The position numbers were made by a program, and so were the translations under genes. DNA of 64,000 nucleotides. It comes from Candidatus Poseidoniaceae archaeon. GTDB lineage: Archaea > Thermoplasmatota > Poseidoniia > Poseidoniales > Poseidoniaceae. The stretch covers positions 5,873 to 69,872 of the forward strand of contig CASIBX010000005.1 in NCBI GenBank assembly GCA_949373075.1, in the 5' to 3' direction. Below the pieces are notes generated by a model. It saw nothing but the letters and a program-made list of their open reading frames with translations. It was not told where the DNA came from and made no database searches. Below, one piece after another: positions 29,117 through 64,000 of the stretch. Each line of letters opens with the position of its first letter. The first letter of the stretch is position 1.

Positions 29117-29121
29117 AGGGG

Positions 29122-29358: not shown

Positions 29359-29369
29359 AAGGTGAGATA

Positions 29370-29630: not shown

Positions 29631-29675
29631 AGATTACACAACAAATGAAGTAAGAATTAACAAAAATGGGTGGGG

Positions 29676-29837: not shown

Positions 29838-29857
29838 AGGCTATGGGTCAATGGTGA

Positions 29858-33073: not shown

Positions 33074-33160
33074 ACGCTATCCTTTACCGCTGCATTATTC
33101 TCAGTTATATTGACTTGTTTGAAATCGAGGGTGATGACATGGAATGATGTGCATTAGCAA

Positions 33161-33293
33161 TGGTGCCGGGAGCGGGGCTTGAACCCGCGACCTTCGGATG
33201 TCTCAGACACGAGAAGGGGCTTTGGTACGTCTCAATTAGCTCGTTAGAAGCTGCCCTATGAGTCCGACGCGCCACCAACTACGCCACCCCGGC
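33161..33293 (-). tRNA. Intron-containing tRNA with CAT anticodon (elongator Met, or Ile2 if C34 is modified), encoded CCA
   Basis: Minus-strand fold. Acceptor GCCGGGG/TCCCGGC. D arm GCGT-AGTTGGTG-GCGC. Anticodon stem TCGGA...TCCGA with loop CTCATA|intron|A. Variable loop AGGTC. T arm GCGGG-TTCAAGC-CCCGC. Discriminator A, then CCA. G1:C72 and the absence of a GGG/CCC anticodon stem argue against an initiator. Confidence 0.85.
33200..33256 (-). other. 57-nt tRNA intron at the canonical 37/38 position
   Basis: Removing GGGCAGCTTCTAACGAGCTAATTGAGACGTACCAAAGCCCCTTCTCGTGTCTGAGAC restores a 7-nt anticodon loop and a 73-nt body. The exact boundaries (+/- 1-2 nt) need a bulge-helix-bulge fold. Confidence 0.7.
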
Positions 33294-33440
33294 AAGTAGT
33301 CCGCCCACCGTACACCCCTCTTTGAAGGATGCGGACTCGCAAGACAACGGTATATACAATTGAATATCAAGATTTATTTTCCGAAAACACAGTTTATTTT
33401 GACCACAGCCTTCATTCACCGGCAACCATCCGCTTAACTG

Positions 33441-35251: not shown

Positions 35252-35303
35252 AATAGGACGAACTTGAACCTTCGCTTTGCTAGAGTTCAGACCTCATTTC
35301 TCC

Positions 35304-35322
35304 GGCCACCCTACGGGTGGCC
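35304..35322. promoter_or_regulatory. GC-rich perfect hairpin in the divergent rfcS / giant-gene intergenic region
   Basis: GGCCACCC-tac-GGGTGGCC is an 8-bp stem (7 GC pairs) with a 3-nt loop. It lies 48 nt upstream of the ATG at 35370 and just before an AAACTATA TATA-like element at 35333-35340. Confidence 0.25.
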
Positions 35323-35369
35323 AGCCGAAAGGAAACTATACCACCTCTGTCAATGGTTACCCGAGCCCA

Positions 35370-44423: not shown

Positions 44424-44473
44424 TCGGTAACTTAGATAATCTAAGAATGTGATTTTAGAATGGAGATGGTGTA

Positions 44474-47044: not shown

Positions 47045-47051
47045 TCCGTAA

Positions 47052-48692
47052 TCACTCGAATTGAGCGGTAAACTCTACAATATCGATTACGCCATTTTCA
47101 TCGGTGTCTATTTCATGGAAAATGACTCGGCACTCAGCATCGTCATATGAGAAACCTAAAGCATGCATTGCAACTTGGAACTCTTTCAAAGTCAGGTGAC
47201 CTTTGCCACCCATATCGGCTGCATTGAAGGCAACTTCTCTTCTATCATGTTCGGTTTCACTTGGATTTCTAAATTCAGAACGGAATGTATCAAACGGAGT
47301 AGTTCTTGGGTGAGCGTGGTTTTTACCATATAGTTGGTAAACAATCAAACCCATTACTATAGCAGCTACTGCTCCTATGATTGCCTTTTCTCCCATGATA
47401 TATACCAGAGCCAAACCAGATAAGATTCCCCAAATGTGAATTAAAGGATAAAGTGGAGCCCTATACTCAGGGTTCCATTCGTGTTTGTAACTAGTCTGAC
47501 GTAGAATGATTACACATGAATTGATCATAATGAATATCATTATTTTGAACCCTGATGCTAGTTTTGCAACATCCTTTACAGGAAGTAAAAGAATTGTCAA
47601 ACCCATTGCTGCTGCAGTCAAAATAATTGGCCAATGAGGAGTTTCATATTTTGCATTGACTTCCTCTAAGGATTGAGGAAGTAAACCATCTCTAGCCATT
47701 GCAAACAAAAATCGAGATGCGGCTAAGATTCCTGCAAGAGCCATGGAAATCATAGTGAGAACCGCTAAAATGGCTGCAAACACACCGATTTTTGAACCTG
47801 CAACCGATTCTACAAATTTGTAAATTGGGTCTTCTATTGCATCTCCGCTACTGTTCACCCACCACTCTCCGGGGATTGCTGCCATCATCATGTAGGTGAT
47901 GCTACAATAGAGAATGGTTGCTATTATCAAAGAAATTAGGATTCCATAAGGCAAATTCTTTCCAGGGTTTTTGACTTCACCCCCAATCGCAGCAACCTTG
48001 GTAACACCTGCATAAGCGACGAAAACAAAGGCAGCAGTTTCAGCAATTGTCCACGGGTCTGTATCCCATGCCGCATTCCATGGCCCAGACATATCAGTCG
48101 AATCAGCGAATAAAGCCATCACTGAGACAATTAACAAAAGACACAATGTAAATCCTAAAATTGGAGCTTGTATTATCTTGACTTTCTTAACCCCGAGAAT
48201 ATTTACTACTGTGATTAATATTAGTGCCGATAATGAAACGATGTACGTATTCAGTTCAATATCAAAATAAGTAGTAACAGTGTACATGTAGGCAGAGAAG
48301 CCAATTAGAGCAAATGAAGATTTTAACAAAAATGATGCCCATAATCCTAAACCGCTAATCGTACCAACAAGTGGACCATAGGTTCGCTCCAAATAAACGT
48401 ATGAACCCCCACTAGAAGGCATTCCTGAAGCCAATTCTGATTTTGAAAGAGCACCAGGCAACACAACAGATGCAGCGAGTAAGAATGCTAACCAAATACC
48501 TTCACCCATTATCATTGCTGCAAAGGATGGTAAAACGAATAACCCCGAACCAAGCATTGCTGAAAGTGAAATAATAATTACACCAACTAGACCCACCGAG
48601 CGCTCAATCTGGACCTTTACGTCCTCGACAACACCCCGTACATCACCTTTCAGTAATTTGTTAGCAGTTGATCTGATATCGATTGTAACCAC
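47052..48692 (-). CDS. APC-superfamily amino acid permease fused to a C-terminal EF-hand pair
   Basis: About 12 TM helices with the APC-type motifs MLGSGLFVLP and GGSYVYLERTYGP. The C-terminal 70 aa has a degenerate EF loop (DMGGKGHLTLKE) and a canonical one (DTDENGVIDIVE, 47073-47108). The start is a GTG. Confidence 0.8.
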   Translation of the reverse strand: MVTIDIRSTANKLLKGDVRGVVEDVKVQIERSVGLVGVIIISLSAMLGSGLFVLPSFAAMIMGEGIWLAFLLAASVVLPGALSKSELASGMPSSGGSYVYLERTYGPLVGTISGLGLWASFLLKSSFALIGFSAYMYTVTTYFDIELNTYIVSLSALILITVVNILGVKKVKIIQAPILGFTLCLLLIVSVMALFADSTDMSGPWNAAWDTDPWTIAETAAFVFVAYAGVTKVAAIGGEVKNPGKNLPYGILISLIIATILYCSITYMMMAAIPGEWWVNSSGDAIEDPIYKFVESVAGSKIGVFAAILAVLTMISMALAGILAASRFLFAMARDGLLPQSLEEVNAKYETPHWPIILTAAAMGLTILLLPVKDVAKLASGFKIMIFIMINSCVIILRQTSYKHEWNPEYRAPLYPLIHIWGILSGLALVYIMGEKAIIGAVAAIVMGLIVYQLYGKNHAHPRTTPFDTFRSEFRNPSETEHDRREVAFNAADMGGKGHLTLKEFQVAMHALGFSYDDAECRVIFHEIDTDENGVIDIVEFTAQFE

Positions 48693-48792
48693 CCCGGATA
48701 ACTACAGTTAATTTACCGCTAAACCGGAGCATGGGCGAAGAGTAGTTATTGTTTGCCACCTTTTGAGGCAACTAAACCCCGGAATATGGAAG

Positions 48793-50178
48793 TCAAACTT
48801 TAGCGATAACCTTCATTTCAACAGCGATTGGTGTAGGAAGGGCCCTAATTGCTAAAGTCGTCCTAGTAGGACCTACTTTACCCAATGTCTCAGCCCAAAC
48901 TTCGTTGTAACCGGAAAAGTCACGATCCATGTCCACCAAAAATGAAGTTACATCAATCACCTTATCGAGTGAAGACCCTGCTTCCTCTAGTATTCTTGCA
49001 ATGTTGTTGACTACTGCTTTTGTTTGAGCTTTGATATCATAATCAAGTGGATTGCCATTCGAGTCTTTGATAGGCCCTCCTGGAATTGAGTTGTCACCGG
49101 GCTGTCTTGGCCCAACACCTGAAAGATAGAGTAAATCCCCTTCTCTTCTGGCATGAGGGTATGCTCCAACTGGCTTAGGTGCCTTGTTGGTATTAACCGT
49201 ATTTTTACCTTCTACTGGGTCATATAATTTCGGCCCAGAATTAGTTGAAGGTGAGGAATCATCCTCGCCTGAGTCGAGAACATTTCTGTCGCCTCCATAG
49301 AAGTCAACATCGTCTTCATCATACTCTTTGTCGCCAGTTCCATTAGATTCGGGGTCTAGTACAACTACGGCAGCACCCGCACCATGAATTGGCTCATAGG
49401 CCAATACCTTGCCAGTTAGATCATTCCTATTACCATTCATTGCAGATAGCCACCACATCGGTTTGAAAGCAACCACTTTCTTGACACGTATTTGGTCATG
49501 TATAGTTCTACTCAGTTGTCCAATATCTTCCAAGCGACCTTCTGAAAGGAACTCGAGTATTTTTTGATTCCATTCATCATCTTTGAGAGAATGTATGCGG
49601 TCCTCATGTGGTTCAATAGGTTCTGTAAACATGCGGTTAGACAAAGACATTACTGAAACAGCGACTACTTTCTTTCCTTGTGCCTTAATCACGTCTTGGC
49701 AAGCCTTAGCTAAAACCGTGGTTTCAGCACGATTAGAATATACATTTGTTGAACAAATTACTGCAGGAATACGATTGTTGGGATTTAGTAACTCAAGCGC
49801 AACTACGGAACCAACGTCTACTGGAAATCCTTCGTAAGCGACCGTACGTGATTCTAATCCTCTTGCGAGATTCGCCTTATTCCATGCATGAGAAAAATCA
49901 GAATCGATGCGGAGGGAATAATGAATGCTGCCTAGGTCATGGAAATCTGCATCGACCATAACCCATTTGGGATTGGGGTCTGCTTGGATTTGATGACCAA
50001 TAACACTAGGCCATAGAGTCGAGTAAATGATTATCAAATCAGCATCGCTTTCTTCGATTTGGCGTCGAGCCTCATCATAAGCATCACGAATGCGTTGCCA
50101 TCCCTCATTCTTCTCCGGACAAAGTACGGGATGTGGATGTGCAGGAACGATTAGGGATTTGATTACCTCTCCTGACAT
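48793..50178 (-). CDS. Fusion: LigB-family dioxygenase alpha-like subunit (AmnA-like) + RidA/YjgF domain (AmnD-like 2-aminomuconate deaminase candidate)
   Basis: The N-terminal ~285 aa are a LigB-superfamily domain without the HPPH metal motif (PAHPHPVLCP). An acidic linker follows. The C-terminal ~128 aa (about 48796-49180) are RidA: KPVGAYPHARREGDLLYLSGVGP...IDVTSFL...RTTLAIRALPTPIAVEMKVIA. The ATG at 50178 follows GGAGGAG and the upstream TGA. Confidence 0.7.
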   Translation of the reverse strand: MSGEVIKSLIVPAHPHPVLCPEKNEGWQRIRDAYDEARRQIEESDADLIIIYSTLWPSVIGHQIQADPNPKWVMVDADFHDLGSIHYSLRIDSDFSHAWNKANLARGLESRTVAYEGFPVDVGSVVALELLNPNNRIPAVICSTNVYSNRAETTVLAKACQDVIKAQGKKVVAVSVMSLSNRMFTEPIEPHEDRIHSLKDDEWNQKILEFLSEGRLEDIGQLSRTIHDQIRVKKVVAFKPMWWLSAMNGNRNDLTGKVLAYEPIHGAGAAVVVLDPESNGTGDKEYDEDDVDFYGGDRNVLDSGEDDSSPSTNSGPKLYDPVEGKNTVNTNKAPKPVGAYPHARREGDLLYLSGVGPRQPGDNSIPGGPIKDSNGNPLDYDIKAQTKAVVNNIARILEEAGSSLDKVIDVTSFLVDMDRDFSGYNEVWAETLGKVGPTRTTLAIRALPTPIAVEMKVIAKV

Positions 50179-50180
50179 AT

Positions 50181-51074
50181 TCACTCCTCCCATGAATGGC
50201 ATGGCCATTCCATTATTGCATTACCAGTTCCAATAATTGTCCCATAACCATGTAGAATTGCAGGCTGTTCGGGGACATCTAAAGCAGATAGTAGCCAAGT
50301 CAATGCCCCACCATCTGCTTCAGCGATTGCTTGTTCACAGAATTCTGGCATTTCATCGATTAACTGTTGAGATTTACCTTGCCTCATCATTTCGATCATT
50401 CGCATATCCCAAAGGTGCATTGCATGACTAGCAATATGCTCTTTACTCATGTCTTCAGGGGGATTGGTTTCAGTTACGAAATGGCGATGCGATAGAGAAT
50501 TACTAGCCAAAAGTAAGCACTTCTTGCCACTTTCTTCTATTGCCTTGGCGGTTGAACGTCCAAGCTCTAGCATCATTTCTTGCATTACTTCAACCGAATA
50601 ATAGGATAGGCTGCGGTTAGATGAAATCGAAACTATCGGTTTATCCCACTCTGGCCTGACCATATGACAAGATACGATTGTGCCATAATCGACGCGGAAA
50701 TCGGGGTTTTCCATCATCTTTACAGCCATTCCTTGAGATTCGGCTTGGTCATGAATTGCACGTGCAAGTTCAACATCGATATTCAAATCATAATTGAATC
50801 TGAATAGATTTGGGAAAACGGGGTCTACACTTTTTGAAGTACACTTTTCTACTCCAATAAAGTGAGTTCCAACATAGGTTTGCCAATGAGGAGATAGTAC
50901 AACTATTACATCGTAGTCGATGTTTTTCAAGGATTCTCTAAGACGCTCATAACCCCAGCGTAATTGTTCCCAGCCACCTTCGGAAACCGGTTCATTTTGC
51001 TCGGGGTTTTCCGCATAAACAAGATGAGGTGGATGAGGAGCAAGGCAGCCTGCAACAATAGAACCCTTCGCCAT
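50181..51074 (-). CDS. Extradiol ring-cleavage dioxygenase, LigB family, catalytic beta subunit (2-aminophenol 1,6-dioxygenase AmnB-like)
   Basis: IVAGCLAPHPPHLVYAENPEQNEP, SPHW, SVDPVFPNLFRFNYDLNIDVELA, FRVDYGT, ASNSLSHRHF, WDMRMIEMMRQGK and GYGTIIGTGNAIMEW. The protein closely recalls AmnB along its whole length. Confidence 0.75.
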   Translation of the reverse strand: MAKGSIVAGCLAPHPPHLVYAENPEQNEPVSEGGWEQLRWGYERLRESLKNIDYDVIVVLSPHWQTYVGTHFIGVEKCTSKSVDPVFPNLFRFNYDLNIDVELARAIHDQAESQGMAVKMMENPDFRVDYGTIVSCHMVRPEWDKPIVSISSNRSLSYYSVEVMQEMMLELGRSTAKAIEESGKKCLLLASNSLSHRHFVTETNPPEDMSKEHIASHAMHLWDMRMIEMMRQGKSQQLIDEMPEFCEQAIAEADGGALTWLLSALDVPEQPAILHGYGTIIGTGNAIMEWPCHSWEE

Positions 51075-51117
51075 GTCATAACCAAGAGGTTCCGCATCTT
51101 CTATTCATCGGCGACGC

Positions 51118-51540
51118 TTGGGCCAAAATATGGGAAACGGTGTCGACCTCAAATTCCGCCATGTTTTGTGGCCTACTGTTTTTGGAATTGGCGTTGTATC
51201 TTTGTGCGCATATACATTAGAAATACATAATCTCCCGCCTATGGTTCTTGCATTGTTACTAATGGTATTATTTTCACCAGTACTAGGAGTTCTAACCAAA
51301 TCGGGCGACCTTCGTGAACATGCCATCGGGGTAGCAGTTGTCTGCATCCCAATGGCTGGCTTATGGGCACTTGGAGGTAATTATTTTAATATTGCAATAC
51401 CTTTCTTAATTTGGATTTGGCAATGTGCATCATGGTCAAAAAAGAACCTGCCCCCGTTTAGATATGGGATTTGGCACGGATTTGGTATTGCATTCAGCAT
51501 AGTACCTGGTGCAATGTTGTATGCTGGAATATTTCAGTAG
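51118..51540 (+). CDS. Small hypothetical 4-helix membrane protein
   Basis: 140-aa ORF that is hydrophobic throughout. It is the only + strand gene inside the minus-strand catabolic cluster and overlaps the panB 3' end by 7 nt. Confidence 0.4.
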
Positions 51541-52349
51541 GACTCTTCTTCATTTGGGAAATCGCCACTACGGACATCTTCACAATACTGTTGCACTGCT
51601 CCCGTAATTTGAGTTTCCAAATCGAGATATCGTCTCAGGAACCTTGGACTGAAATCAGTAGTAATTCCTAGCATATCGTGTAAAACTAGAACTTGACCAT
51701 CACAATCTTGACCAGCCCCTATTCCAATAGTTGGAATGGAAATTGCCTCACTAACTTGTTTTGCTAGATGCGCAGGTATCTTTTCGAAAACTATTGCAAA
51801 GCAACCAGATTCTTCTAGCAACTTAGCATCTTCAATTAATTTTGCAGCTTCTTCCTCTTCTTTAGCCCTAACTGTGTAGGTTCCGAACTTGTAGATTGAT
51901 TGTGGAGTTAGACCAAGATGCCCCATTACTGGAATACCTGCACTCAAAATTCTTTGAACACTTTCAACTATTTCGGAGCCACCTTCAAGTTTCACAGCGT
52001 GGCCTCCTGATTCTTTCATTATGCGAATAGCGCTTTCGAGGGCTATTGCAGAATTGCCCTGATATGTACCAAATGGCATATCGACAACGATTAGAGCACG
52101 GTCAACCGCTCTCTCAACACATTGTGCATGATAGATCATATGGTCTAGACTCATTGGAACGGTTGTATCTCTACCAGCCATAACGTTTGACGCTGAGTCT
52201 CCAACAAGAATTACGTCAACACCACCTCGGTCAACCAGTTTAGCAAGGCTGTAATCATAAGCGGTTAGCATAGTGATTTTTTCACCCGCTCTCTTCATTT
52301 CCTGAAGGGTGTGTGTAGTCACTTTGCGAGCGTTTGAATGGACGGACAT
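51534..52349 (-). CDS. panB: 3-methyl-2-oxobutanoate hydroxymethyltransferase (ketopantoate hydroxymethyltransferase)
   Basis: [51 protein letters not shown] and IVFEKIP motifs. Confidence 0.9.
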
Positions 52350-52386
52350 ATGATTACCTCGATTTGTGCGAAAAGGTGTTCAGCCT

Positions 52387-53766
52387 TCAATCTTCCATAA
52401 CGCAAATATTGACCGCTTCACTGAAGAAACCGACGGACCACATACCACCTTCCCTACCAACACCGCTATCTTTCACTCCACCAAAGGGTACGCGCAAGTC
52501 GCGGTGCAACCAAGTGTTGACCCAAACCATTCCAGAATCTATTTTTTCGGCTATCACACGGCCTTTATTCTTCGACCAAACGCTGCCGGCTAATCCGTAC
52601 TGAGTTGAATTTGCCATTTGTATTGCTTCATCATCAGAATCAAACTGGTGAATTGTGACTACTGGTCCAAATATCTCTTCAGTTGCTGTGCGTGATTTAT
52701 GTGAAAGGCCACCTATCACAGTTGGCTCTATCCAGGAGCCTGGTTTATCTGGAATATTTCCTCCAGCCAATATGTGGCCTCCTTCTTGTTTTGCTAATTG
52801 AACATAAGACATGACTTTGTCTCGATGGCTATCATTAATCACAGGACCTATTTCGAAACTCTGAAGTTGTTCGAGGTACTTTGACATGAAGTCCTCATAG
52901 ATAGAGGAATGAACCAGAACTCTAGAACCACACAAACAAATTTGTCCAGAGTTAAGGAATGACGCTCTTAGCACCCCTGGAACTGTAATCTCTAGGTCTG
53001 CATCTTCCATAATTATGGATGCATTCTTACCGCCTAATTCAAGACTTAATTTCTTGAACATAGGAGCTGCCGTGGCTGCAACTATTTTCCCTGTGGCTGT
53101 GCCACCTGTAAACGAGATTGCCTTGATTTTAGGATGCTCAACTATTGCTTGTCCAATCTCTGGCCCGTAACCATGTACAATGTTTAGCACCCCATCTGGC
53201 AACCCTATATCAGTGCAAACTTTGCCCAAAAAGTGAGCTGTGATTGGAGTTATTTCGCTAGGTTTAGCAATAATGGTATTCCCCATCAACAGTGCAGGAG
53301 CAACTTTCCAAGATAGAAGGTATAGTGGGAGGTTCCAAGGTGAAATTAAGCCGACTATTCCGATTGGTTTTCTCATGACATAATTTGTTGCATCTGGCAT
53401 CTCGAAGGTTTCCGATTTCATATTCCTACCAAATTCAGCAAAGAATCTGAAATTATTTACAGACCGGTCTGCGTCTACATTGAGAGCTACATGATGCGGT
53501 TTACCAGTATCCAATGATTCCAGTCTGGCAAGTTCGTCTATTTGTGATTCCAAAGAGTCTGCAATTTTGTCTAGCCAGTCACAACGTTGCAGTAAACTTA
53601 GTCCACTCCATTGCGATTGTGCTTTTTCAGCAGCAGTTACCGCTCCTTCAACATTCTTAGTACGAGGAATCGTTGCAATTACAGTACCATCTAAGGGTGA
53701 GATATCATCAAAGAATTCAGTGGGGGAAACAAACTCTCCCCCAATCAAATTCTCTATTCGAATCAT
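52387..53766 (-). CDS. NAD(P)-dependent aldehyde dehydrogenase (2-amino/2-hydroxymuconic semialdehyde dehydrogenase-like)
   Basis: ALDH superfamily motifs: SPWNLPLYL, FTGGTATG, LELGGKNA (catalytic Glu), GQICLCGSR (catalytic Cys) and EEIFGPV. Specificity is inferred only from the neighbouring amn-like genes. Confidence 0.8.
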   Translation of the reverse strand: MIRIENLIGGEFVSPTEFFDDISPLDGTVIATIPRTKNVEGAVTAAEKAQSQWSGLSLLQRCDWLDKIADSLESQIDELARLESLDTGKPHHVALNVDADRSVNNFRFFAEFGRNMKSETFEMPDATNYVMRKPIGIVGLISPWNLPLYLLSWKVAPALLMGNTIIAKPSEITPITAHFLGKVCTDIGLPDGVLNIVHGYGPEIGQAIVEHPKIKAISFTGGTATGKIVAATAAPMFKKLSLELGGKNASIIMEDADLEITVPGVLRASFLNSGQICLCGSRVLVHSSIYEDFMSKYLEQLQSFEIGPVINDSHRDKVMSYVQLAKQEGGHILAGGNIPDKPGSWIEPTVIGGLSHKSRTATEEIFGPVVTIHQFDSDDEAIQMANSTQYGLAGSVWSKNKGRVIAEKIDSGMVWVNTWLHRDLRVPFGGVKDSGVGREGGMWSVGFFSEAVNICVMED

Positions 53767-54878
53767 ACGTCGACCTCATAATGCCAGCGGTCTTGATCAG
53801 GGTCCCATTCATCCCAAGTGGGAATTGTTTCTAGTACATCATGTAGATTGTCAGGAACGATTCCTGAGACGATGAATGCTTTTTGTCTGTGAAGCGGGTA
53901 AGGATTTCTCAATTCAATTCCGAGGCAACCCAATATTGCTCTGGCAACATACCATGTTGCTTGAGAATTCCATCCATGCGCAATTTTCACCACGATTCCT
54001 AACCCCTTAGGGTAATCAGGATGCTCAATCGCCATTCCCAGTAAACCATCTGCGCCTTCTTTAGCGATTACCTTACCATTGCCAATTTTTAGAATTGTAG
54101 AATCTAGCCTGTTAAATCCGCCAACTAAATCGGGATGGCGACACATTGCTTCCCAAATCCAATCCTCATCTTTGTCCCTAACCAGTCCAGCGTAAATTTT
54201 AGCCAACTCTGCAACTGTGTTTGAGACGGTAGGAAGACCACAACCATCTTTTGCAATCCTTAGTGGATTCCAATCATCGCCCAAATACTTCCTTATCTGC
54301 TCCATATAGGCATGAAATACCTCGTGATTAGGCAAGGTATAGCCGGCTCTGCCCCATCCTTTTGCACGGCAACCTGCTAGAATTGCAGCATGTTCACCAC
54401 TACAGGTATGATACCATCTTCTTGGACGTCTTACTTGGCGTCCAAATTGAATAAGAGGAACATCTACTGGAGTGAGCATAAGGGGCCATTCCGCTTCATA
54501 AAGTAAAGATTGAGCGGCAGCTACATGTTCAGTATCGCCATTATGGCTAGCGACAGCAATTGCTTTTTGTTCCCAAGTGTGGTCTTTTAATTCCTCAGTA
54601 AAGGCCTTGAGCATGAAGGGCTTCATCATTGAACGACCATAACACAGTACATTGCCTCCAAATGAATGTACTACTTCGTCACCGTGGCACCATGCAACAG
54701 CACCATGTATTGTGGTTTCTGAAACACCATTGCGACGGTAATCGACCAACGGCTCCCATTCAACATCTCTTCCGGTGGGAATGCCTTCTACATCCTCCCC
54801 TAATGGTGAATCGGGATAGATTGCAGACCCTGGTTTGCCCGGTGCTACTGCTGAATTAGGGTCGTGTCTTAATCCCAT
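53763..54878 (-). CDS. Asparaginase II (PF06089-type) family protein
   Basis: RSMMKPFMLKAF, ASHNGDTEHV, HTCSGEHAAILAGC and DGCGLPT match the family's S.xKP / SHxGE..H / CSGKHA / DGCG series. The start overlaps the ALDH stop by 4 nt. Confidence 0.65.
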   Translation of the reverse strand: MGLRHDPNSAVAPGKPGSAIYPDSPLGEDVEGIPTGRDVEWEPLVDYRRNGVSETTIHGAVAWCHGDEVVHSFGGNVLCYGRSMMKPFMLKAFTEELKDHTWEQKAIAVASHNGDTEHVAAAQSLLYEAEWPLMLTPVDVPLIQFGRQVRRPRRWYHTCSGEHAAILAGCRAKGWGRAGYTLPNHEVFHAYMEQIRKYLGDDWNPLRIAKDGCGLPTVSNTVAELAKIYAGLVRDKDEDWIWEAMCRHPDLVGGFNRLDSTILKIGNGKVIAKEGADGLLGMAIEHPDYPKGLGIVVKIAHGWNSQATWYVARAILGCLGIELRNPYPLHRQKAFIVSGIVPDNLHDVLETIPTWDEWDPDQDRWHYEVDV

Positions 54879-54882
54879 TTAA

Positions 54883-56109
54883 TCACTCCAACAAAGGTAC
54901 TACTTCGTGCCACCATGCTTCCATATTACGGATAACTCGGTCGCTATCGTGATTAAAGAAATCAAACCAACACATTAGACGGTCTTCAGGATGAAAACGC
55001 TCTTTGACCTGAGATGCTACCTCGCTGGCATTCCCAATTAGTGCATTATCTGCTGCCTTCTCGACCTTAGATGGGTCCAGAGTGCCTTCGAGTGCTTTCC
55101 AATACTCTCCTAATGCTTGCCTAGCCTCTTCGTGAGCAGCAAGAGATTGCTCCTCAGGAGAAAGTCCCTTCTCGGAATTAAGGAATACAAATGTAGTCCG
55201 AGGCATATCCCTACGTTGCCATTCGCCCCCATCCGAATGAAACATTTCGCTCATTCTTTGGTGGGTCGAATCAATAACTTCGGGAGAGGTTATAGAGAGA
55301 TTGAAAACTTTGACTGGCATGAATTTGTTGACAAACTCTTGGGCCTTAGGATCGTGAGTTCCCGCAACCAATTCTAATTGGGATCTAGGCCATTGTTTAG
55401 GAACTATTGAAATCTCTTCGAAATTATATCTCCTTTCAACCTCTATACTTCCCACAGTCGATTCTCCGGATGTTTCCTCTACTGCAAGTTGGACTTTGTC
55501 CCAATCTTCGTCACTACGGAAATTATCTCGAGTCAATATGGTTTCTCTTATGTCATCAGAATGAATCGTATCACCGCGTAGTAGTCGCAAGAATATCTCG
55601 CTTGCTTCCATGAAAATCTGACCGCGCAAAGCTGGCCATGCTGCTTCTTCGATTGGATTACGGGGGACGATTCCATATGGACGTGCCATGAATTCAAATC
55701 TGCCAGCACTAAAACCAACATGCAATTTCCTTTTGGAATCCATGTGGGAAAGGAATTGTACGGTGTTAGCAACTCTTTCGGCTTGAGCGATTGGACCACC
55801 ACTAGCCAGTATACTGACTACTGCCGAGCCAACATCAATTCTTTTTGTCCTTCTAAAAGATTCCATTGCTAATTGACAAAAGTCAGTACATAAACCAACT
55901 TCGCCTTGCCAATGAGGAACCACTGGCTTGGAGTTATCCTGTTGTGTTTGGGTCGATAAATGAGCCTGAGCTATCCATGCAACTCCGAACCCTAAACGGT
56001 CTGCTGCATCTAATTGTGCGTAGTAATTAGAGAACATTTCGGACTCGCTAGGTGTGAATCCATTATGGTCTGGAGTCTGTGATATCGAGAAGAATATGTC
56101 GTACTCCAT
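54883..56109 (-). CDS. Luciferase-like (LLM class) flavin-dependent oxidoreductase, with an internal insertion
   Basis: DAADRLGFGVAWIAQAHL and RIDVGSAVVSILASGGPIAQAERVANTVQFLS...HVGFSAGR resemble the LLM N-terminal barrel. The ATG at 56109 (MEYDIFFSI) is preferred over the track start at 56154. Confidence 0.5.
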   Translation of the reverse strand: MEYDIFFSISQTPDHNGFTPSESEMFSNYYAQLDAADRLGFGVAWIAQAHLSTQTQQDNSKPVVPHWQGEVGLCTDFCQLAMESFRRTKRIDVGSAVVSILASGGPIAQAERVANTVQFLSHMDSKRKLHVGFSAGRFEFMARPYGIVPRNPIEEAAWPALRGQIFMEASEIFLRLLRGDTIHSDDIRETILTRDNFRSDEDWDKVQLAVEETSGESTVGSIEVERRYNFEEISIVPKQWPRSQLELVAGTHDPKAQEFVNKFMPVKVFNLSITSPEVIDSTHQRMSEMFHSDGGEWQRRDMPRTTFVFLNSEKGLSPEEQSLAAHEEARQALGEYWKALEGTLDPSKVEKAADNALIGNASEVASQVKERFHPEDRLMCWFDFFNHDSDRVIRNMEAWWHEVVPLLE

Positions 56110-56153
56110 GTAATCCCTCTCCCTAGGGAGAGGGGCTCTATGTATCAATATCA

Positions 56154-56951
56154 CTATTCGGCTGTTAGTTTAGAGACACGTTCTCTAACTGGCTCAGGAA
56201 CTACTTCTCCTGCTTCCATGAAAACGGTCATGATGTCTGAAAGTTGAACCATTGCCTCATCGGGCTGATTCGAAATTTCGGCTAAATCTGCTAATCCCCA
56301 TCGAGCAACTAATATCCCGGAGAGGTCATTAATTTCAGTTGCTATCGTAAGAGACTGAATGAGTAATTCTTGAGATTGTTCCAACTCACCTAGCGTAGAA
56401 TGGGAGTGCGCTAAATCAGCAAGTGCTTCCATTTTCTCAAAACGCTCTGATTCGGGAATGAGTTCCAATCTCTTTCGAAGATGGAGTTGACTCTTTTCAA
56501 ACTCGCCATCTTCTTTTGCAATATGGGCAATTAATGCATGACCGTAAATCATGCCCTCTAAGTCCTCGGCTTGTTCACGAAGTCGCATTGAGCGGTTTGC
56601 AAAAACACCTGCATCTTCGCTGCCCAATGAGATCAAGGACACATGGTGAAAAATACCTGCCGCTAATCCAGGTAGTCCTTCATTTTCAGAAACCACACCT
56701 AGACCTATCAATTCATCCTTACTCGCACCATTGTGCTTCAGTAGTTCGAATTGGCACCAACCTTGGTCTTCAGGATTCAATGAAACCTTAGCAGCATGGT
56801 CTAGTAACCTAGCGACAAGCGCATCTCTTCCCAAGTCGCGTGCTAATTCAACAAGATGTAATGCTAGACTTGTGTTTACCGATTCCAAACCTTCGCCTTC
56901 GGCGAACATCTCTAGAACTTCTTCTGCTTGTGTTGGACTCATTTCTGGCAA
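56154..56951 (-). CDS. Hypothetical all-helical TPR-like repeat protein
   Basis: 265 aa with recurring ~34-aa helical-hairpin periodicity (for example ALADLAHSHSTLGELEQSQELLIQSLTIATEINDLSG). No catalytic motif. Confidence 0.4.
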   Translation of the reverse strand: MPEMSPTQAEEVLEMFAEGEGLESVNTSLALHLVELARDLGRDALVARLLDHAAKVSLNPEDQGWCQFELLKHNGASKDELIGLGVVSENEGLPGLAAGIFHHVSLISLGSEDAGVFANRSMRLREQAEDLEGMIYGHALIAHIAKEDGEFEKSQLHLRKRLELIPESERFEKMEALADLAHSHSTLGELEQSQELLIQSLTIATEINDLSGILVARWGLADLAEISNQPDEAMVQLSDIMTVFMEAGEVVPEPVRERVSKLTAE

Positions 56952-56960
56952 GTTCTCACC

Positions 56961-57746
56961 TCAGATTGAACGCATTCGTCCGCCGTCGACAGCTAAGGAG
57001 ACACCACGAATACCGCCTGCTATGGGCATGCAAAGATATGCGATTGCAGCACCGGTTTCCAATGGGTCGATCAATCGGCCAATTGGAACCTGAGTCATCC
57101 ACCCAGAATGTACATCTTCCACACTCTTTCCTGTCTTTTCATTGATGGAAGCCGCCAAGGAACCTAGACGGTCAGTATCTGTAAACCCAGGAAGGACATT
57201 GTTGATGGTAATGCAAGATGGTAATTCGCTTGAAAGCGTTTTCGACCAAGATGCCATTGCTCCACGAAGTGTATTGGAAAGTCCAATGTTTGGAATTGGT
57301 TCTCTAACTGAAGTAGAGATGACATTGACTATCCTACCCATTCCTGCGTCTTCCATCATCGGAGCGATTCCTCTGACTAAAGTGTGGGCGGCGTGAAGAT
57401 GACGCTTGAAAGGTGCTTCAAAGTCTTCGATGTCATTATCCAGAAGTGGACCTCCTGGCGGACCTGCTGCATTATTGATTAAGATGTGACATTCGCCAAT
57501 TGAAGAAATGAATTCGGCAATTGCTTCTTGGTTTTCCAAATCGAGACTAACTGCTGTATGTCCTGAGCCTGATAGTTTGGAAATTAAGTGCTCAGGATTC
57601 CTACTAACTGCAGTTATTTTTGCTCCTGCTTTTGCCAGCATTTGGGCAGTTGCAGCACCGATTCCTTTGGATGCCCCACAAACAATTGCATGTTTGCCAA
57701 CTAAGGCCGTAGTTGAGAAGGGGTAGTCGTCTCCTAGCCAGTCCAT
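56961..57746 (-). CDS. Short-chain dehydrogenase/reductase family protein, atypical active site
   Basis: GKHAIVCGASKGIGAATA (TGxxxGxG-like), NNAAG, PGFTDT. The usual YxxxK position reads SNTLRGAMASWSK, with no Tyr, as in the BKR-like SDR subgroup. The start is taken at M25 to avoid overlapping the upstream gene. Confidence 0.75.
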   Translation of the reverse strand: MDWLGDDYPFSTTALVGKHAIVCGASKGIGAATAQMLAKAGAKITAVSRNPEHLISKLSGSGHTAVSLDLENQEAIAEFISSIGECHILINNAAGPPGGPLLDNDIEDFEAPFKRHLHAAHTLVRGIAPMMEDAGMGRIVNVISTSVREPIPNIGLSNTLRGAMASWSKTLSSELPSCITINNVLPGFTDTDRLGSLAASINEKTGKSVEDVHSGWMTQVPIGRLIDPLETGAAIAYLCMPIAGGIRGVSLAVDGGRMRSI

Positions 57747-57778
57747 GCCAATGCCAAGGGGCGCACAGTATTGAACCT

Positions 57779-58369
57779 TCACAGCCAGTCTCGAATAGTT
57801 TCTACTTGCGCTAACCAATCATCACTGGCTACATCGATGATTGAAAAATGGTCGCCAGGCAACCATAACTTCTGAATTTCTACTCCCTTAGCATCCATGG
57901 CTCTAGCGTATGATTCTGATTGTGTCCAAGGGACTTCATCATCCGCTTTACCATGCATTACTAGGACTGCTGTTCGAGGGGGATTATCTACTGGATTAAT
58001 CCGCCTCCAAACCTCCTCATTACCTTCTGGCTTACAACCGACCCATCGGCGCACTGCATCTCCATCATCAGATAATTTAGCATGATCTGCTGCAACTAAA
58101 TCTGTGATCGGAGCTTGAGCGATAGTTAGCCAAGGTTTTCGATCTGCAACTGCAGCCATCATCAAAGCAAGATGACCACCAGCAGAATGACCCATTATCA
58201 TTGAGCGAACAATGTCGATTCCGGGTAACAAAGCAAGTTGGCCCCACGCACGCATGACGTCAGATAAAGTATCAACCCAAACGCCTTCATCACCTTCTGA
58301 CCATCCTTTGAATTCGATATTCCATGCCGCTATTCCTTGCTCAGCAAGGTCTTCAGCAATCGGTGCCAT
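57779..58369 (-). pseudogene. Alpha/beta hydrolase (esterase/arylformamidase-like), 5'-truncated at the compositional breakpoint
   Basis: GHSAGGHLA nucleophile elbow and C-terminal HGKADDEVP / GDHF. Upstream in frame the sequence reads ...FGFFLNNGGFWKTEYTLEL, the oxyanion-hole HGG region. There is no ATG or GTG there, and the frame hits a stop at 58469-58471, inside AT-rich foreign-looking DNA. Confidence 0.55.
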
Positions 58370-58446
58370 CAATTCCAGAGTATATTCAGTCTTCCAAAAA
58401 CCACCATTGTTGAGGAAAAATCCAAAACTCCTAGAAATCGATATTA

Positions 58447-59360
58447 TGAATTCAGGATCAGCTTCTGACTATAGAATTCTAGATTTTAGAAAACCTATGA
58501 TTCGTTTTTGCAGTCAAGAAAGAAAACTCCATCAACAAGTTCAAGACTTTCCTGTCTTTAATGGAAAATATTCAACAACATGCTACTTAGATGAAACATT
58601 GCATGCCCTAGATGACATGTATAACAAAAGAAAACTAAATCCGATTAAGTATCTACGCTCTCTTCAAACTGTGTTTATGCACAGGCCTTACAGAAAAATG
58701 CCAGAAACTGGTCTTGCCATCGCTTATCTCTTTGCGCTCTCCACGGGTGATTCCGATGATCGAGCTGAACTCACATCATATTGTTATGAAGCAGGAATTG
58801 ATCCCGTTAAAGTCATAAATGAAATGCAAGAATACTCACCAGATATAAAAAATCTAGCCAATCCAACAGATCTTAATAATGAAGCCTTCCCAATGACAAT
58901 GGCCATATTTAAAATATTCAGAGCCTCAAGACATTATCGTAGGGAAGTTTTAGATAAGATGGCTCTAGGAAGTGATACGATGTTAGATCTTGGTAATCTT
59001 TATACAGCTGCTTTACCAGCATGGATAGCAGCTGGTATAGAACAAGCATTAATAGAGAATATAGATCTCACTGGTACTGAAATTCTCACTCTTGGATATG
59101 GCAGTGGCGATGCCGCAGAAGTAATACCTTTTAAAGTCTGTAAAGGATGGAAAGACGCTGCAAAAAACATTCAATTTTCTAAAGCTATGTCATTCACAAT
59201 AGATATTAATAAAGAGCAATATATTGATCTTCATAACGGGAAGTCCCTAGAAAGATTAAATTATGAATTAAAGAACGAATTTATTATTGAGCGTGTAGGC
59301 AATTCAGCACAAAAAAATTATCAGGATATAGGTATCGAGTATCATCGATATATTAAATAA
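58447..59360 (+). pseudogene. mvaS: HMG-CoA synthase (bacterial MvaS-type), C-terminal ~300 aa only; the catalytic-Cys N-terminal third is missing
   Basis: KNPKLLEIDI..SDYRILDFRKP compares with NPSILAL..DVYDFWRP. FPVFNGKYSTTCYLDE compares with YPLVDGALSKDAYI. Also present are FMHRPYRKM, GNLYTAALP and LGYGSGDAAE. The upstream part of the track ORF (58212-58446) is antisense to the hydrolase and has no MvaS similarity. Confidence 0.6.
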
Positions 59361-59371
59361 TTGAATAATTT

Positions 59372-59941
59372 TTATGGGCTTGTCTTTAATAGCTCACTAT
59401 GATCTGAATTAATTCGCTCCCACTCCATAATGAACCATGGAGTATAAATACCCTCTCTCTTTAACAAGGTCGTTATATCTTTTGAATTTAAAAACTTAAA
59501 GTCTGCAATTTCATTCAGATTAATTTCTATCTTTTGGTCTATTTTGCCAATAAAAACATGACATAGTTCATTTTCAGAACCAACATCTTTATATTTAGCT
59601 GTATATGAAAATTTATAAATATATTCTAAATCAACAGCTTCAATACCCAATTCATCAAGCAATCTTCTATTCACAGCTTCAGTTATATTTTCACCCTCTC
59701 GTGGATGACTGCAACAACTGTTTGACCAAAATAAAGGCCATAATTTCTTTAATGCACTTCTTTGCTGTATCAGAAGTTCTCCTTTTGCATTGAATAAAAA
59801 AACCGAAAAAGCACGATGTAATCTTCCTTCACCTTGATGACAATCAATCTTACTCATTGTACCAATTTCATTATCAAGTGAATCAACGAGTATTAATCTC
59901 TCGCTATCAAACGAAACTATATTTTTATTTAATTTATGCAT
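59372..59941 (-). CDS. idi: Isopentenyl-diphosphate delta-isomerase, type 1 (Nudix)
   Basis: HRAFSVFLFNAKGELLIQQRSALKKLWPLFWSNSCCSHPREGE...AVNRRLLDELGI matches the IDI-1 core, including the catalytic Cys/Glu region. Confidence 0.85.
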   Translation of the reverse strand: MHKLNKNIVSFDSERLILVDSLDNEIGTMSKIDCHQGEGRLHRAFSVFLFNAKGELLIQQRSALKKLWPLFWSNSCCSHPREGENITEAVNRRLLDELGIEAVDLEYIYKFSYTAKYKDVGSENELCHVFIGKIDQKIEINLNEIADFKFLNSKDITTLLKREGIYTPWFIMEWERINSDHSELLKTSP

Positions 59942-59953
59942 TTATTTAGGCCA

Positions 59954-62197
59954 TCAAGATGAATTTATTGAAATAATTTTATAACCTGCTAACTCAAAAG
60001 TCTTTGCTATTTCTTCTTCTTTTCCTGGACAGAGGATAACGATTGATCCTCCACCACCGGAACCAGTGATCTTTGCCCCCAGCGCACCCTCTGATCTGGC
60101 TAAATTTACCATTTTCTCAAGCTCTGAATTTGATACTCCTATGGCGTTAAGCAACCCATGTGCCACATTCATTAATATTCCAAGCTCATCAAAATTACGA
60201 TCTTTTATTGCAGCTAAACCCTTCGTTGACAACTTTCCAAGCTGCATAAATATATCTGTATAAATATTTTTATTTTTTTCATACCTTGAACAAACTTCAT
60301 TGATTACATCGATAGTTTTTGATGATTTATTGCTTACTGCAATAATTATAGGAAGAGATTTAATATCATCAAAATCAATATTTTTAACGCCATCTTTTCT
60401 ATTATATAAAATTGGTTGAGCATAGCAGGCAACCGTATTATCAATACCAGAGGGATTTCCATGAGACAATGTTTCACACTCATACGCAATATCATTAATC
60501 TCCTTATCCGTTGATGTTAGATTAAATAAATCAATTAATCCTCTTATTAAAGCGACAGCATATGAAGCTGATGCTCCTAATCCCATGGAGAGAGGTATGC
60601 GAGAAAAGATTTTGATCTTATATTTCCCTCGATCTATTTTTAGTAAATCGGATATCATTTCTATCATTCGAACCAGATATGTATATTCATCAGAATTATT
60701 ATCAAAAAAACTATTTGAGTTTCCATTAATAATAAATTGATAATCTCCTTCTATTTCTTGCAGCTCAACTTTAACGGCCTTTTCAATAGGAATGGCTATT
60801 GCATAATGATCATAAACAACAGCATGTTCTCCAAATAATATTATTTTTCCTGCAGAAAAACCAAATCCTATTGGTCCAGTATCATCCTGAGAATCATCAG
60901 GCATAGTCTCTTTTAGCTTTATCGAGTCAAAAATCTCTTGAGCCTTCCATGCTTTAATTTCATTACTTAAAATTAAAGCATCCAAAACTTTAGAAAAGTA
61001 TCTCTCAGGAACATTAATACTCATCACCACACTTTTTGCGTGTAATTTCATATGGCCTTTTTGAATACCATAAGTTGTTAAAGCCCTTAATGCAGCTAAA
61101 TTTTGTGCTAGACCTACGGAGCCCATAATTATTGCTAACTCATTTGAATTTTTGGCAGCTGTTATCTTTAATCCTAACTGAGCGCCTGGATTTGCCTTCA
61201 AAGAACTGCCAACAATACCAACTTTAATCGGCATTTTTAGCTCGCCAACCAGATCACCATCAGCATCAACAAACCACTTTGTCAGTGATCTATATCTACC
61301 ATCTTGACAAGCATAAGCATGGGCCGCTGCTTCAATTGAGCGCCAATCGTTCCCAGTAGCAATCGCAACAGCATCAATTCCATTCATAATGCCTTTGTTA
61401 TGTGTTGTTGCACGATATGGATCAGAATCAGCAAAATCAGTCGCATTTATTATGCCATCACGAACCTCTGGGCCATCATAATCGTCTTTAGTCAAATATT
61501 GGTGAGGTATTTTCACTTTAATATTAATCAGAGATCGATCAGTCAAATTGGACAATATTTTCAAACCAACTCTGCAACTGGTTAATTCTGATAAATCATC
61601 TGCCAGAGACTCACAAATTGTATTTACCAAATTAGCTCCCATTGCATCTTTAGTGTCTATCAACAGATGTAATACAACTATTTGCTTACTTTTTTGCTTT
61701 ACTATTCGAATCTCAATATCTTTAACACCACCTCTTCTTTTAATTAAATTTGGTTGAGATAAATTTGCTGAATGAATTAATATTTTTTTGTTCTGCTCAA
61801 GAATGCCAACCGTATCTGCTATATTTTTAACATCAAGAAGCTGGATTTGCCCAATCAATAGAGACTCATGAATGGATGCAATAAATCCTCCTGACTTTCT
61901 AATAATCTTGGCAGCACTACTAACACCAGCAACTATGGATGGCTCTTCTACTACCATTGGCACTAAATAATCTTGATCATTAATTAAAAAATTAGTAGCT
62001 ATTGAGAGGGGTAACCCAAAAACACCTATTACATTTTCACTCATATTATCAGCAGTATGAGTCAGAATTACTTGATTTCCTGATTTGAGCAGTTGAGATT
62101 CCTCAGAAGTTAATATATCAAGATTAGATAGCACCTCAATCCTTTCGGCAATCGTCATTTTATAAAAGCCAGTTATATCTGATTTATTCATGATCAA
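59954..62197 (-). CDS. Fusion protein: class II HMG-CoA reductase (N-terminal, ~430 aa) + mevalonate kinase (C-terminal, ~300 aa)
   Basis: HMGR-II motifs: VEEPSIVAGVSSAAK, DAMGANLVNT, THNKGIMNGIDAVAIATGNDWR. MVK/GHMP motifs: GKIILFGEHAVVY, PLSMGLGASASYAVAL, KITGSGGGGSIVIL. It is a single uninterrupted 747-aa ORF. Confidence 0.85.
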   Translation of the reverse strand: MIMNKSDITGFYKMTIAERIEVLSNLDILTSEESQLLKSGNQVILTHTADNMSENVIGVFGLPLSIATNFLINDQDYLVPMVVEEPSIVAGVSSAAKIIRKSGGFIASIHESLLIGQIQLLDVKNIADTVGILEQNKKILIHSANLSQPNLIKRRGGVKDIEIRIVKQKSKQIVVLHLLIDTKDAMGANLVNTICESLADDLSELTSCRVGLKILSNLTDRSLINIKVKIPHQYLTKDDYDGPEVRDGIINATDFADSDPYRATTHNKGIMNGIDAVAIATGNDWRSIEAAAHAYACQDGRYRSLTKWFVDADGDLVGELKMPIKVGIVGSSLKANPGAQLGLKITAAKNSNELAIIMGSVGLAQNLAALRALTTYGIQKGHMKLHAKSVVMSINVPERYFSKVLDALILSNEIKAWKAQEIFDSIKLKETMPDDSQDDTGPIGFGFSAGKIILFGEHAVVYDHYAIAIPIEKAVKVELQEIEGDYQFIINGNSNSFFDNNSDEYTYLVRMIEMISDLLKIDRGKYKIKIFSRIPLSMGLGASASYAVALIRGLIDLFNLTSTDKEINDIAYECETLSHGNPSGIDNTVACYAQPILYNRKDGVKNIDFDDIKSLPIIIAVSNKSSKTIDVINEVCSRYEKNKNIYTDIFMQLGKLSTKGLAAIKDRNFDELGILMNVAHGLLNAIGVSNSELEKMVNLARSEGALGAKITGSGGGGSIVILCPGKEEEIAKTFELAGYKIISINSS

Positions 62198-63195
62198 ACC
62201 TCACGATTGAAGCCTACTTTATCTAACCCTAGGCACAATGGTACAAAACCCTTTTGTTTTGCTAATTCTTTAAACTCATTCAATAATTTATCAGATGAAG
62301 AAATACAAATACCAATGTCACCACCTGCACCACAGGGTTTGTAGACTAAATCGCTATTTTTCTTTGCTAAATCTAACAGCATATTATGCTTATTCCCAAA
62401 GATATTTAAATCATATTCAATACTAAATTCCATCAAAGCATTGGTATATTCATCGAGACAACTCAAGAATAGTTTGCTTGTGCCCCGCTCCCATATTGAA
62501 GCAAATTGTAAGGCTTTTTTGTTTAGATTTGAAAAACTTTGTTTTGAGAATGTTGTAATTTTAGACAATTGCCTAGGAGTACTAACCGGTATGCCACTCC
62601 AAAAAATTTTAAATTTTAAATTATCTGGAAAGTTCAAAGAAGTTGTAACTTTATCTTTACTACGAAAGTATTTAATAATTCCACCTTCTATTGAGGTGGC
62701 AATATCCACACCACTGCCATTAGCATCTTGAAACTCTTGGTGAGTTTTTAATGCCAACTCTTTTACTCCAATTGATAATTTGAAAGTGTCAATAAAAACA
62801 CTAGCCATAGAAACCGTGAGTGCTGCGCTAGAACCTATACCATATTTAAGCCCAGTAATTTCATCATAAAAACCACTGGTATCTAAGACGAATTGATAAA
62901 AAGCAGTAGGAACAATATTTATTTGTCGCCAAAAACACCCAAAAAATAATCTAATAGAATTATCATCCAATTCAGCATCTAACCATTCTATTTTTCCCTT
63001 GTCATTTACAATAAATGATAGTTCTCTATCTTTAAAACCCATAGTTTTTAAGATATGCCTTTTCTGACCATGCTCCGTGATAGAAGCAATTGCTCGTTTA
63101 TTAATAGCCATTGAAATTGCAGGAGCTTCAGCTAATACTGCAAATTCACCGGCAATAATAATTTTACCTGGCGCGCTTGCCTTAAAAGTTTTCAT
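62194..63195 (-). CDS. mvaK2: Phosphomevalonate kinase (GHMP type)
   Basis: SAPGKIIIAGEFAVL (compare PGKLFIAGEYAVV), YGIGSSAALTVS and YKPCGAGGGDIGI. There is a 4-nt ATGA overlap with both flanking genes. Confidence 0.7.
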   Translation of the reverse strand: MKTFKASAPGKIIIAGEFAVLAEAPAISMAINKRAIASITEHGQKRHILKTMGFKDRELSFIVNDKGKIEWLDAELDDNSIRLFFGCFWRQINIVPTAFYQFVLDTSGFYDEITGLKYGIGSSAALTVSMASVFIDTFKLSIGVKELALKTHQEFQDANGSGVDIATSIEGGIIKYFRSKDKVTTSLNFPDNLKFKIFWSGIPVSTPRQLSKITTFSKQSFSNLNKKALQFASIWERGTSKLFLSCLDEYTNALMEFSIEYDLNIFGNKHNMLLDLAKKNSDLVYKPCGAGGDIGICISSSDKLLNEFKELAKQKGFVPLCLGLDKVGFNREV

Positions 63196-64000
63196 AATTG
63201 GGTACTAGAAGTAGGAGCTTCCCCCAGACTTGATGTCATTATAGATTCTACACCATCTATTTCTGCCAATCTTTTTATGATTCTTGTTTCATTCTCAGGC
63301 AGACATACCGCTTTTATTTGTGGTCCAGCATCCATTGTAAAAAAAACAGGTTCACCACTTTGCTGTAAATCTCGAATAGCATGCATACAGTTAAGAGTTG
63401 CAGCATTCCAATAGACAACAGAGGGCTTAGTAGTCCACATAACAGAATGCATTTTCAAGCAATTATGCTCAGAAACCGCCGCTAATTTTGCAAAATCTTT
63501 CTCTTTTACAGCTAATCTTGCTTCATTCATATCTGGAGATTGATTTTCAATCCAAGCTGAATAAAAAGGAGAAGAATGCGAACTTAAATTCATTGCCTTT
63601 GATGATGAAATACTTTTTTTATTTTTATCAGTGATAGCAATCACCACACTCAATGGCCATCGTGTAACATTTGATAATTGTTTTATTTTAATAGTATTCG
63701 ATATATTTTTAAGTTCTACGATACCACCCAATAAAGATCTTGCTGCGGAACCTGAAATATTTCCTGCTTGCGAAGCGAATAGCTGAGTGTCTGATTTTTT
63801 ATTCATCACTGCATTTGCAGCAACAACTAAGGCAGAAAATGAAGAGGAGGAGGATGCCAGTCCAGCTGAAATAGGAAAATTACATTCACTAATGATCTTA
63901 GCGAATTTTCGATTTTTACCCATAACAAGATCCAAACATTGGCTAACACGTGATAAATTTGACTCATTATTGACACCATTTATGATTAATTCATCACATT
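63192..64000 (-). CDS. mvaD: Diphosphomevalonate decarboxylase (partial, N-terminus beyond right edge)
   Basis: FPISAGLASSSSSFSALVVA, HSSPFYSAW and FFTMDAGPQIKAV. The frame stays open upstream of the track's M at 63935 (…DELIINGVNNESNLSRVSQCLDLV) to the window end. Confidence 0.8.
   Translation of the reverse strand, partial: CDELIINGVNNESNLSRVSQCLDLVMGKNRKFAKIISECNFPISAGLASSSSSFSALVVAANAVMNKKSDTQLFASQAGNISGSAARSLLGGIVELKNISNTIKIKQLSNVTRWPLSVVIAITDKNKKSISSSKAMNLSSHSSPFYSAWIENQSPDMNEARLAVKEKDFAKLAAVSEHNCLKMHSVMWTTKPSVVYWNAATLNCMHAIRDLQQSGEPVFFTMDAGPQIKAVCLPENETRIIKRLAEIDGVESIMTSSLGEAPTSSTQL

Follow-up and report, generated by a model that had tools for sequence, protein, structure and literature searches.

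An archaeal Marine Group II contig joined at one base to gammaproteobacterial mevalonate-pathway DNA, very probably as an inter-domain chimera

The window analysed here, a stretch of 64,000 nt, contains two truncated genes that meet near position 58407. To the left of this site, the minus strand carries the 3' remnant of a BD-FAE/S9-type alpha/beta hydrolase (57779..58405; residues 62-269 and the stop codon; Pfam BD-FAE and Peptidase_S9). To the right, the plus strand carries the 3' remnant of an HMG-CoA synthase (58419..59360; residues 181-493 and the stop codon; Pfam HMG_CoA_synt_C), which is followed by four minus-strand genes assigned with Pfam: an IPP isomerase (59372-59941), an HMG-CoA reductase-mevalonate kinase fusion (59954-62197), a GHMP kinase that is probably a phosphomevalonate kinase (62194-63195), and a diphosphomevalonate decarboxylase (MVD) that extends from 63192 past the window end. 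Two segments can be delimited around the breakpoint (58406..58408, as defined by base-by-base comparison with both parents). Positions 19433..58407 form a Poseidoniaceae/Marine Group II (MGII) segment that is colinear with Tara scaffold_260, as judged from 99.9-100% identity and from the record coordinates, and the composition of window 1-19432 matches the rest of this archaeal part. Positions 58407..64000 form a gammaproteobacterial segment (NCBI label Woeseiaceae) with 99.95% identity over 5,594 nt to five independent contigs (L001-L004 and L006).

The two parts differ sharply in composition. The GC fraction is 0.432 over 1-58407 versus 0.340 over 58408-64000; the 1-kb profile stays at 0.40-0.47 over 1-58000 and at 0.31-0.36 over 59000-64000, and 200-nt windows go from 0.46 (starting at 58200) to 0.325 (starting at 58400). 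A two-segment maximum-likelihood model puts the single change in GC at 58367 (support interval 58330-58479). The initial annotation had described a drop to about one-third GC on the right and a change from acidic to Lys/Ile/Asn-rich proteins, and had named sliding GC and tetranucleotide z-scores as checks; all of this is borne out. Relative to the distribution of all 5.6-kb windows to the left, GC on the right lies at z = -12.3 and the tetranucleotide distance from the left centroid at z = +16.2, and both measures switch at the site. The median pI is 5.14 for the 40 ORFs of the left part versus 8.11 for the right part, where only five ORFs are available, and the fraction of Lys, Ile and Asn is 0.149 versus 0.229 for the same sets of 40 and 5 ORFs. 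Such a profile might be read as an established genomic island of low GC, with both sides belonging to one archaeal genome, and the one observation in favour of this reading is the contiguity of both parts in the record. The genes on the two sides, and the way in which each side continues elsewhere, bear directly on it.

The left side is 99.91-100% identical to independent contigs L009-L011 and L093-L096. More specifically, window 46961-58407 matches Tara scaffold_260 (L010) at 99.97% and L011 at 99.91%, and window 23440-44286 matches another stretch of scaffold_260 (L093) at 99.95%. The short-chain dehydrogenase to the left of the site is present on 11 contigs by exact-protein look-up. In protein clusters at 90% identity, the left part retrieves the NCBI names 'Euryarchaeota archaeon' and 'Candidatus Poseidoniaceae archaeon', and among its genes is one for the small subunit of replication factor C (NCBIfam equivalog, 425.7 bits for a cut-off of 303). 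Scaffold_260 runs 22.5 kb beyond the break and there carries an intact hydrolase of 269 aa, preceded by a nondiscriminating AspRS of archaeal type and by SAM synthetase; AspRS stands before the intact hydrolase in both L010 and L011, and the archaeal locus goes on into archaeal genes in at least four independent contigs.

The hydrolase remnant in the window (57782-58405, residues 62-269) is 100% identical to the corresponding part of the intact 269-aa protein of L010. Truncation of this gene had been recognized from the start, and alignment to the intact parent sets the loss at 61 aa, where about 50 had been estimated. Codons 1-61, which the parent has, are gone, and with them the His of the I-H-G-G-F-W oxyanion motif; GHSAGG is kept, and a complete hydrolase fold with both HGG oxyanion hole and GxSxG elbow is not encoded in the window. 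The frame meets its first stop at 58469-58471, as originally described, and has no credible N-terminus on the way; the residues FGFFLNN, at first taken for hydrolase sequence, are bacterial DNA read backwards across the join. The source's gene caller predicts the remnant as a 196-aa protein. In the intact archaeal locus, the called start of the hydrolase overlaps the 3' end of AspRS by 53 nt (L010 9195-9247).

The archaeal part holds several further features. A tRNA(CAU) at 33164-33293 on the minus strand (Rfam match of 52.3 bits; missed by ARAGORN in bacterial mode) carries 59 extra nucleotides immediately behind the anticodon loop, and this insertion looks like an intron of archaeal type. 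Strain differences were nowhere else in the left part seen so closely packed as within it, at 33210-33250, where two SNPs and one indel separate the window from three independent contigs. Scaffold_260 ends exactly at the start of tRNA-Thr at window position 19433, according to coordinate arithmetic. CD36 is normally a eukaryotic family. The plus-strand gene at 24139-27093 encodes a 984-aa archaeal protein of pI 4.05 with a Pfam match to CD36 (37.4 bits, gathering threshold 26.5) over residues 68-162 only. At 47052-48692 on the minus strand lies an archaeal amino-acid permease with a C-terminal pair of EF-hands (Pfam EF-hand_7, 38.6 bits), an uncommon combination, and at 35277-44423 on the plus strand a giant archaeal protein of about 3,017-3,048 aa (pI 4.1) with a CBM96 domain, followed by an acidic protein of 856 aa. 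Positions 12757-14764 are the sole stretch covered by three independent contigs of 1.8-2.0 kb at 100% identity, two of which end exactly at 14764, and most of the contigs with the exact 476-aa PAP2-like protein are below 5 kb in length, which suggests flanks of 12757-14764 that vary between strains and break assemblies.

The right side leads to a different organism. The bacterial segment differs from its parent contigs by two mismatches and one gap in 5,594 nt; L005, L007 and L008 match it over shorter spans, and identities across L001-L008 range from 99.88% to 99.96%. The IPP isomerase to the right of the site is present on at least 20 contigs from Tara, JGI, other ENA assemblies and Logan (exact-protein look-up). 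The bacterial parent has a complete HMG-CoA synthase gene (493 aa), after which come DUF4399 (so placed in L001-L004 and L007), acyl-CoA dehydrogenase, malate/lactate dehydrogenase and GshA; the opposite flank of the mevalonate cluster carries GspB/ExeA-like genes of type II secretion. In eight independent contigs, which are up to 112 kb long, the low-GC part continues at the same low GC with bacterial genes, among them those for GspB, GshA, FakA/DegV and ABC transporters. The HMG-CoA synthase cluster carries the NCBI name 'Woeseiaceae bacterium', and the neighbourhood encodes both a GspB-like protein and a glutamate-cysteine ligase of proteobacterial type (570 bits for a cut-off of 393). The right-hand parent is a bacterium, most likely a low-GC pelagic gammaproteobacterium.

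In the synthase remnant (58419-59357), residues 181-493 match the complete 493-aa protein of L001 at 100% identity. Nothing is left of residues 1-176, and an extra A shifts residues 177-180 out of frame. The plus-strand ORF of the window has an HMG-CoA synthase C-domain over its C-terminal two thirds. In the HMG-CoA synthase family, the catalytic role of a Cys in the N-terminal domain is established. Here the catalytic-Cys motif is KHAC126LGG, aligned with QHACYGG in PDB 5hwp; it falls among the lost residues, and the window holds the C-terminal domain only. The initial annotation was therefore right that the synthase is truncated and has lost its catalytic Cys; the loss amounts to about 180 aa by alignment to the 493-aa parent, not about 160, and the K of 'KNPKLLEI', given as the first retained residue, is a product of reading across the join. 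The label 'MvaS-type' holds approximately: the best NCBIfam match of the 493-aa protein is the prokaryotic model TIGR01835, at 171 bits for a cut-off of 360, and the protein falls under the cut-off of all NCBIfam HMG-CoA synthase models. At 493 aa, the intact synthase (L001 10582-12063, minus strand) is unusually long.

The HMG-CoA reductase and GHMP-type mevalonate kinase of the bacterial segment form a single polypeptide of about 745 aa. A protein search of GTDB representatives with this fusion gave a best identity of 48% among the matches listed, with many Woeseiaceae, Rhodanobacteraceae and Pseudomonadales MAGs at 41-48%, and neither the bacterial parent itself nor the source contig was among the matches listed. 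The fusion also occurs in a few MAGs outside Gammaproteobacteria, again among the matches listed.

Each side of the window is at least 99.9% identical to the contigs of a different organism, and the two sides therefore do not share a history, as the initial annotation had proposed. Checking taxonomy side by side, another of its suggestions, returned archaeal names on the left (Euryarchaeota/Poseidoniaceae) and Woeseiaceae on the right, and the taxonomic and the compositional discontinuity coincide at the breakpoint, with archaeal markers to its left (replication factor C small subunit, archaeal-type AspRS in the parent locus, and the tRNA with the intron-like insertion) and bacterial markers to its right (GshA and the GspB-like protein in the parent). 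These observations speak against the genomic island to the point that we give it next to no credence: the low-GC part leads into bacterial genes of the same GC in eight independent contigs, the archaeal locus leads into archaeal genes in no fewer than four, and both boundary genes are truncated. We instead consider it very probable that the contig is an inter-domain chimera, in which DNA of a Poseidoniaceae archaeon has been butt-joined at 58407 to DNA of a co-occurring gammaproteobacterium, and that the join is an artefact. Both parents continue differently beyond the break, with the interrupted genes intact.

The join can be placed to the base. In a base-by-base comparison with L010/L011 and with L001-L008, archaeal identity stops at 58407 and bacterial identity starts at 58407, so that the two parents overlap by 0-1 nt, a single T at 58407. 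The archaeal parent reads ...CCAAAAACCACCAT up to the join and GGATTAGC... beyond it, the bacterial parent reads ...GCAATGC before the join and TTGTTGAGGAAAATCC... from there on, and the window reads ...CCAAAAACCACCATTGTTGAGGAAAAATCC... across it. In the triplet 58406-58408, the hydrolase His61 codon CAT of the archaeal parent has become AAT in the window. The break had first been put at about 58415; its sharpness stands, and the parent comparison moves it to 58407. A run of five A at 58416..58420 (plus strand) contains a 1-nt insertion, given that all eight bacterial-parent contigs have four A here. This insertion is the sole indel in the 5.6-kb bacterial segment and lies 9-13 nt away from the join.

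Little else marks the site. No k-mer of 14 nt or longer common to both parents lies within 2 kb of the break, and no direct or inverted repeats flank the join beyond 12-27-mers at chance level. Neither an integrase, a transposase or other mobile-element gene nor a tRNA lies at the join, where the adjoining genes are metabolic by Pfam; the tRNAs closest to it are at 19433 and 33164. Inspection of the join by eye revealed no adapter remnant and no restriction-site scar. No target-site duplication and no second junction were seen, the bacterial sequence continuing to the window end and, on the source contig, to at least about 64155. The lost gene halves and their neighbours are absent from the rest of the window. 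We reject a rearrangement inside one genome on the strength of this absence, together with the origin of the two sides from different domains.

The junction is a singleton. The exact sequence of the intact hydrolase is present on 13 contigs (the longest of 141,883 bp) and that of the intact HMG-CoA synthase on 46 (the longest of 167,409 bp). The truncated 196-aa hydrolase, in contrast, is found on one contig only, the deposited 70,157-bp source (NCBI/ENA), and the 304-aa synthase fragment on two, namely this source and a frameshifted long-read contig (L092). An MVD variant specific to the window, K307T, is likewise present at full length on one contig only, of 70,157 bp; its full-length presence implies that the bacterial part reaches beyond the window by no less than 155 nt (to about 64155). 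Since the truncated products and the K307T MVD are all on the 70,157-bp contig, the join lies inside the deposited record. For the same reason, it can be ruled out that the join was made while the window was cut from concatenated records. Searches of JGI metagenome contigs returned no exact match to a 40-mer across the junction, nor to a 28-mer tolerating either four or five A. A 100-nt IUPAC pattern allowing for either parent gave no match either, but this search requires an exact 100-mer in a species representative and its outcome is uninformative. None of the contigs L001-L011 and L093-L096 matches both sides of the join, and neither the junction searches of JGI metagenomes nor the look-up of the truncated hydrolase showed the junction a second time. 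A single Tara sample, ERZ2783084, contains the two parents on scaffolds of their own (scaffold_260 and scaffold_63).

These results weigh on the possibility of a genuine and very recent insertion, in which at least 5.7 kb of gammaproteobacterial mevalonate-pathway DNA would have entered an MGII hydrolase gene by illegitimate recombination. The join does lie within one deposited contig, both organisms occur in the same water sample, and a blunt, homology-free junction fits illegitimate recombination. However, the bacterial part is 99.95% identical to a free-living bacterial population and shows no amelioration, and the transferred operon would have been cut within HMG-CoA synthase and be non-functional. 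The hydrolase is intact on 13 of the 13 contigs that carry the exact protein, and the junction is absent from the JGI metagenomes. A single junction, with neither target-site duplication nor integrase or mobile-element gene in the window, lacks the hallmarks of integration. Finally, metagenome contigs reflect abundant genotypes, and an event in one cell should not assemble. We therefore regard a real insertion as very improbable. The initial annotation had left the cause between misassembly or concatenation and a recent insertion of foreign DNA; its first option is favoured by the intact state of both genes in every independent assembly found (13 and 46 contigs) and by the singleton junction, and its second is disfavoured, as no insertion hallmarks are seen. 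The synteny comparison that it had suggested likewise showed the hydrolase intact elsewhere, at 269 aa on 13 contigs, with AspRS and SAM synthetase adjoining.

How the artefact may have arisen is constrained by the absence of shared sequence. Chimeras of de Bruijn graphs normally form at shared k-mers. Because the parents share no sequence at the join, the usual graph collapse does not apply, and either an in-vitro chimera or the joining of contig ends has to be invoked. Under the chimeric reading, the join would cut the archaeal hydrolase gene after codon 61 (read from the 3' end) and the bacterial HMG-CoA synthase gene at codon 177, and would stem either from a chimeric fragment or read that arose while the library was made or sequenced, or from the joining of two contig ends by assembly or scaffolding software.

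An independent 5.4-kb contig of the bacterial parent, L008 (Logan ERR10946520), has one end at 58411, 4 nt inside the bacterial side. Only 2 nt from its other end it has A at 63843, a rare allele that the window shares and that is G in five other contigs. These features suggest that L008 and the window come from a common or a sister data set, and that bacterial coverage there runs out at the join. Together, the sole bacterial-side indel near the join and the end of L008 point to thin coverage at the site.

In one version of the artefact, an archaeal and a bacterial contig, placed in one bin, would have been abutted by scaffolding, gap-closing or merging without an N spacer, with no chimeric molecule involved. 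In favour of it, the junction is blunt and homology-free; L008, which shares the rare allele and ends 4 nt inside the bacterial side, suggests a bacterial contig that dead-ends there; and a homopolymer error at the bacterial tip is typical of contig ends with low coverage. Against it, standard scaffolders add Ns and depend on read pairs that connect the two ends, pairs that would have to be chimeric too, and binning based on composition normally keeps a piece of 34% GC apart from a genome of 43% GC. By sequence alone, abutted contig ends look the same as a join that came from a chimeric read. We consider this sub-type of artefact possible though rather unlikely.

We prefer an origin in which one or very few chimeric reads bridged two places of thin coverage. 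With thin true coverage, no competing true path would be present in the assembly graph and the chimeric bridge could survive graph cleaning. If only one read or a handful formed the bridge, or if the join was out of reach of polishing, a 1-nt homopolymer error could stay beside it, as is seen in the run of A at 58416..58420.

The feature is almost certainly an artefact without biological significance. It nevertheless has consequences for the use of the record, since in a public NCBI/ENA contig of 70,157 bp an archaeal genome fragment is fused to bacterial DNA of 5.7 kb or more. The enzymes encoded by this bacterial DNA belong to the mevalonate pathway, which supplies precursors of isoprenoid lipids; at face value they could pass for bacterial-type mevalonate genes of MGII and lead to false claims of inter-domain transfer. 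The contig needs to be divided at 58407, with its bacterial part taken out of the archaeal bin. The locus also provides a clean case of a homology-free, cross-domain chimeric join that independent assemblies place to the base without reads. Were the join real, it would represent an inter-domain transfer seen essentially at time zero, at 99.95% identity to the donor population.

Compared with known systems, the feature shares with genomic islands and inter-domain transfers a block of foreign composition that carries a metabolic cluster and adjoins host genes. Unlike these, it has no integrase, tRNA or repeats, shows no divergence from the donor, carries a truncated cargo operon, has a junction that is absent elsewhere and shows no second boundary up to about 64155. 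Inter-genome translocation was the most prevalent misassembly type in CAMI data, and about 65% of misassembly breakpoints lay inside coding sequence (metaMIC; PMC9661791). Misassembly is also one of two computational sources of chimeric MAGs, rarer than mis-binning, according to GUNC (PMC8201837). The present join resembles the inter-genome translocation misassemblies that metaMIC, DeepMAsED/ResMiCo and GUNC target: two genomes occupy one contig, the breakpoint falls in coding sequence, composition and taxonomy switch abruptly, and each half is colinear with a different reference. Typical de Bruijn-graph chimeras arise where genomes have sequence in common, as in conserved genes, repeats or strain variants; here, in contrast, no more than 1 nt is common to the parents at the join, and they come from different domains. 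Chimeras of library preparation and sequencing include the blunt-end ligation of two fragments, chimeras of MDA, and consecutive nanopore reads that were left unsplit. The present join differs from these in that no adapter remnant or restriction-site scar is seen at it. Like them, it is a blunt and homology-free junction of unrelated molecules from the same sample, and it retains beside it a homopolymer error of the kind that is left over when polishing fails for want of a true spanning read.
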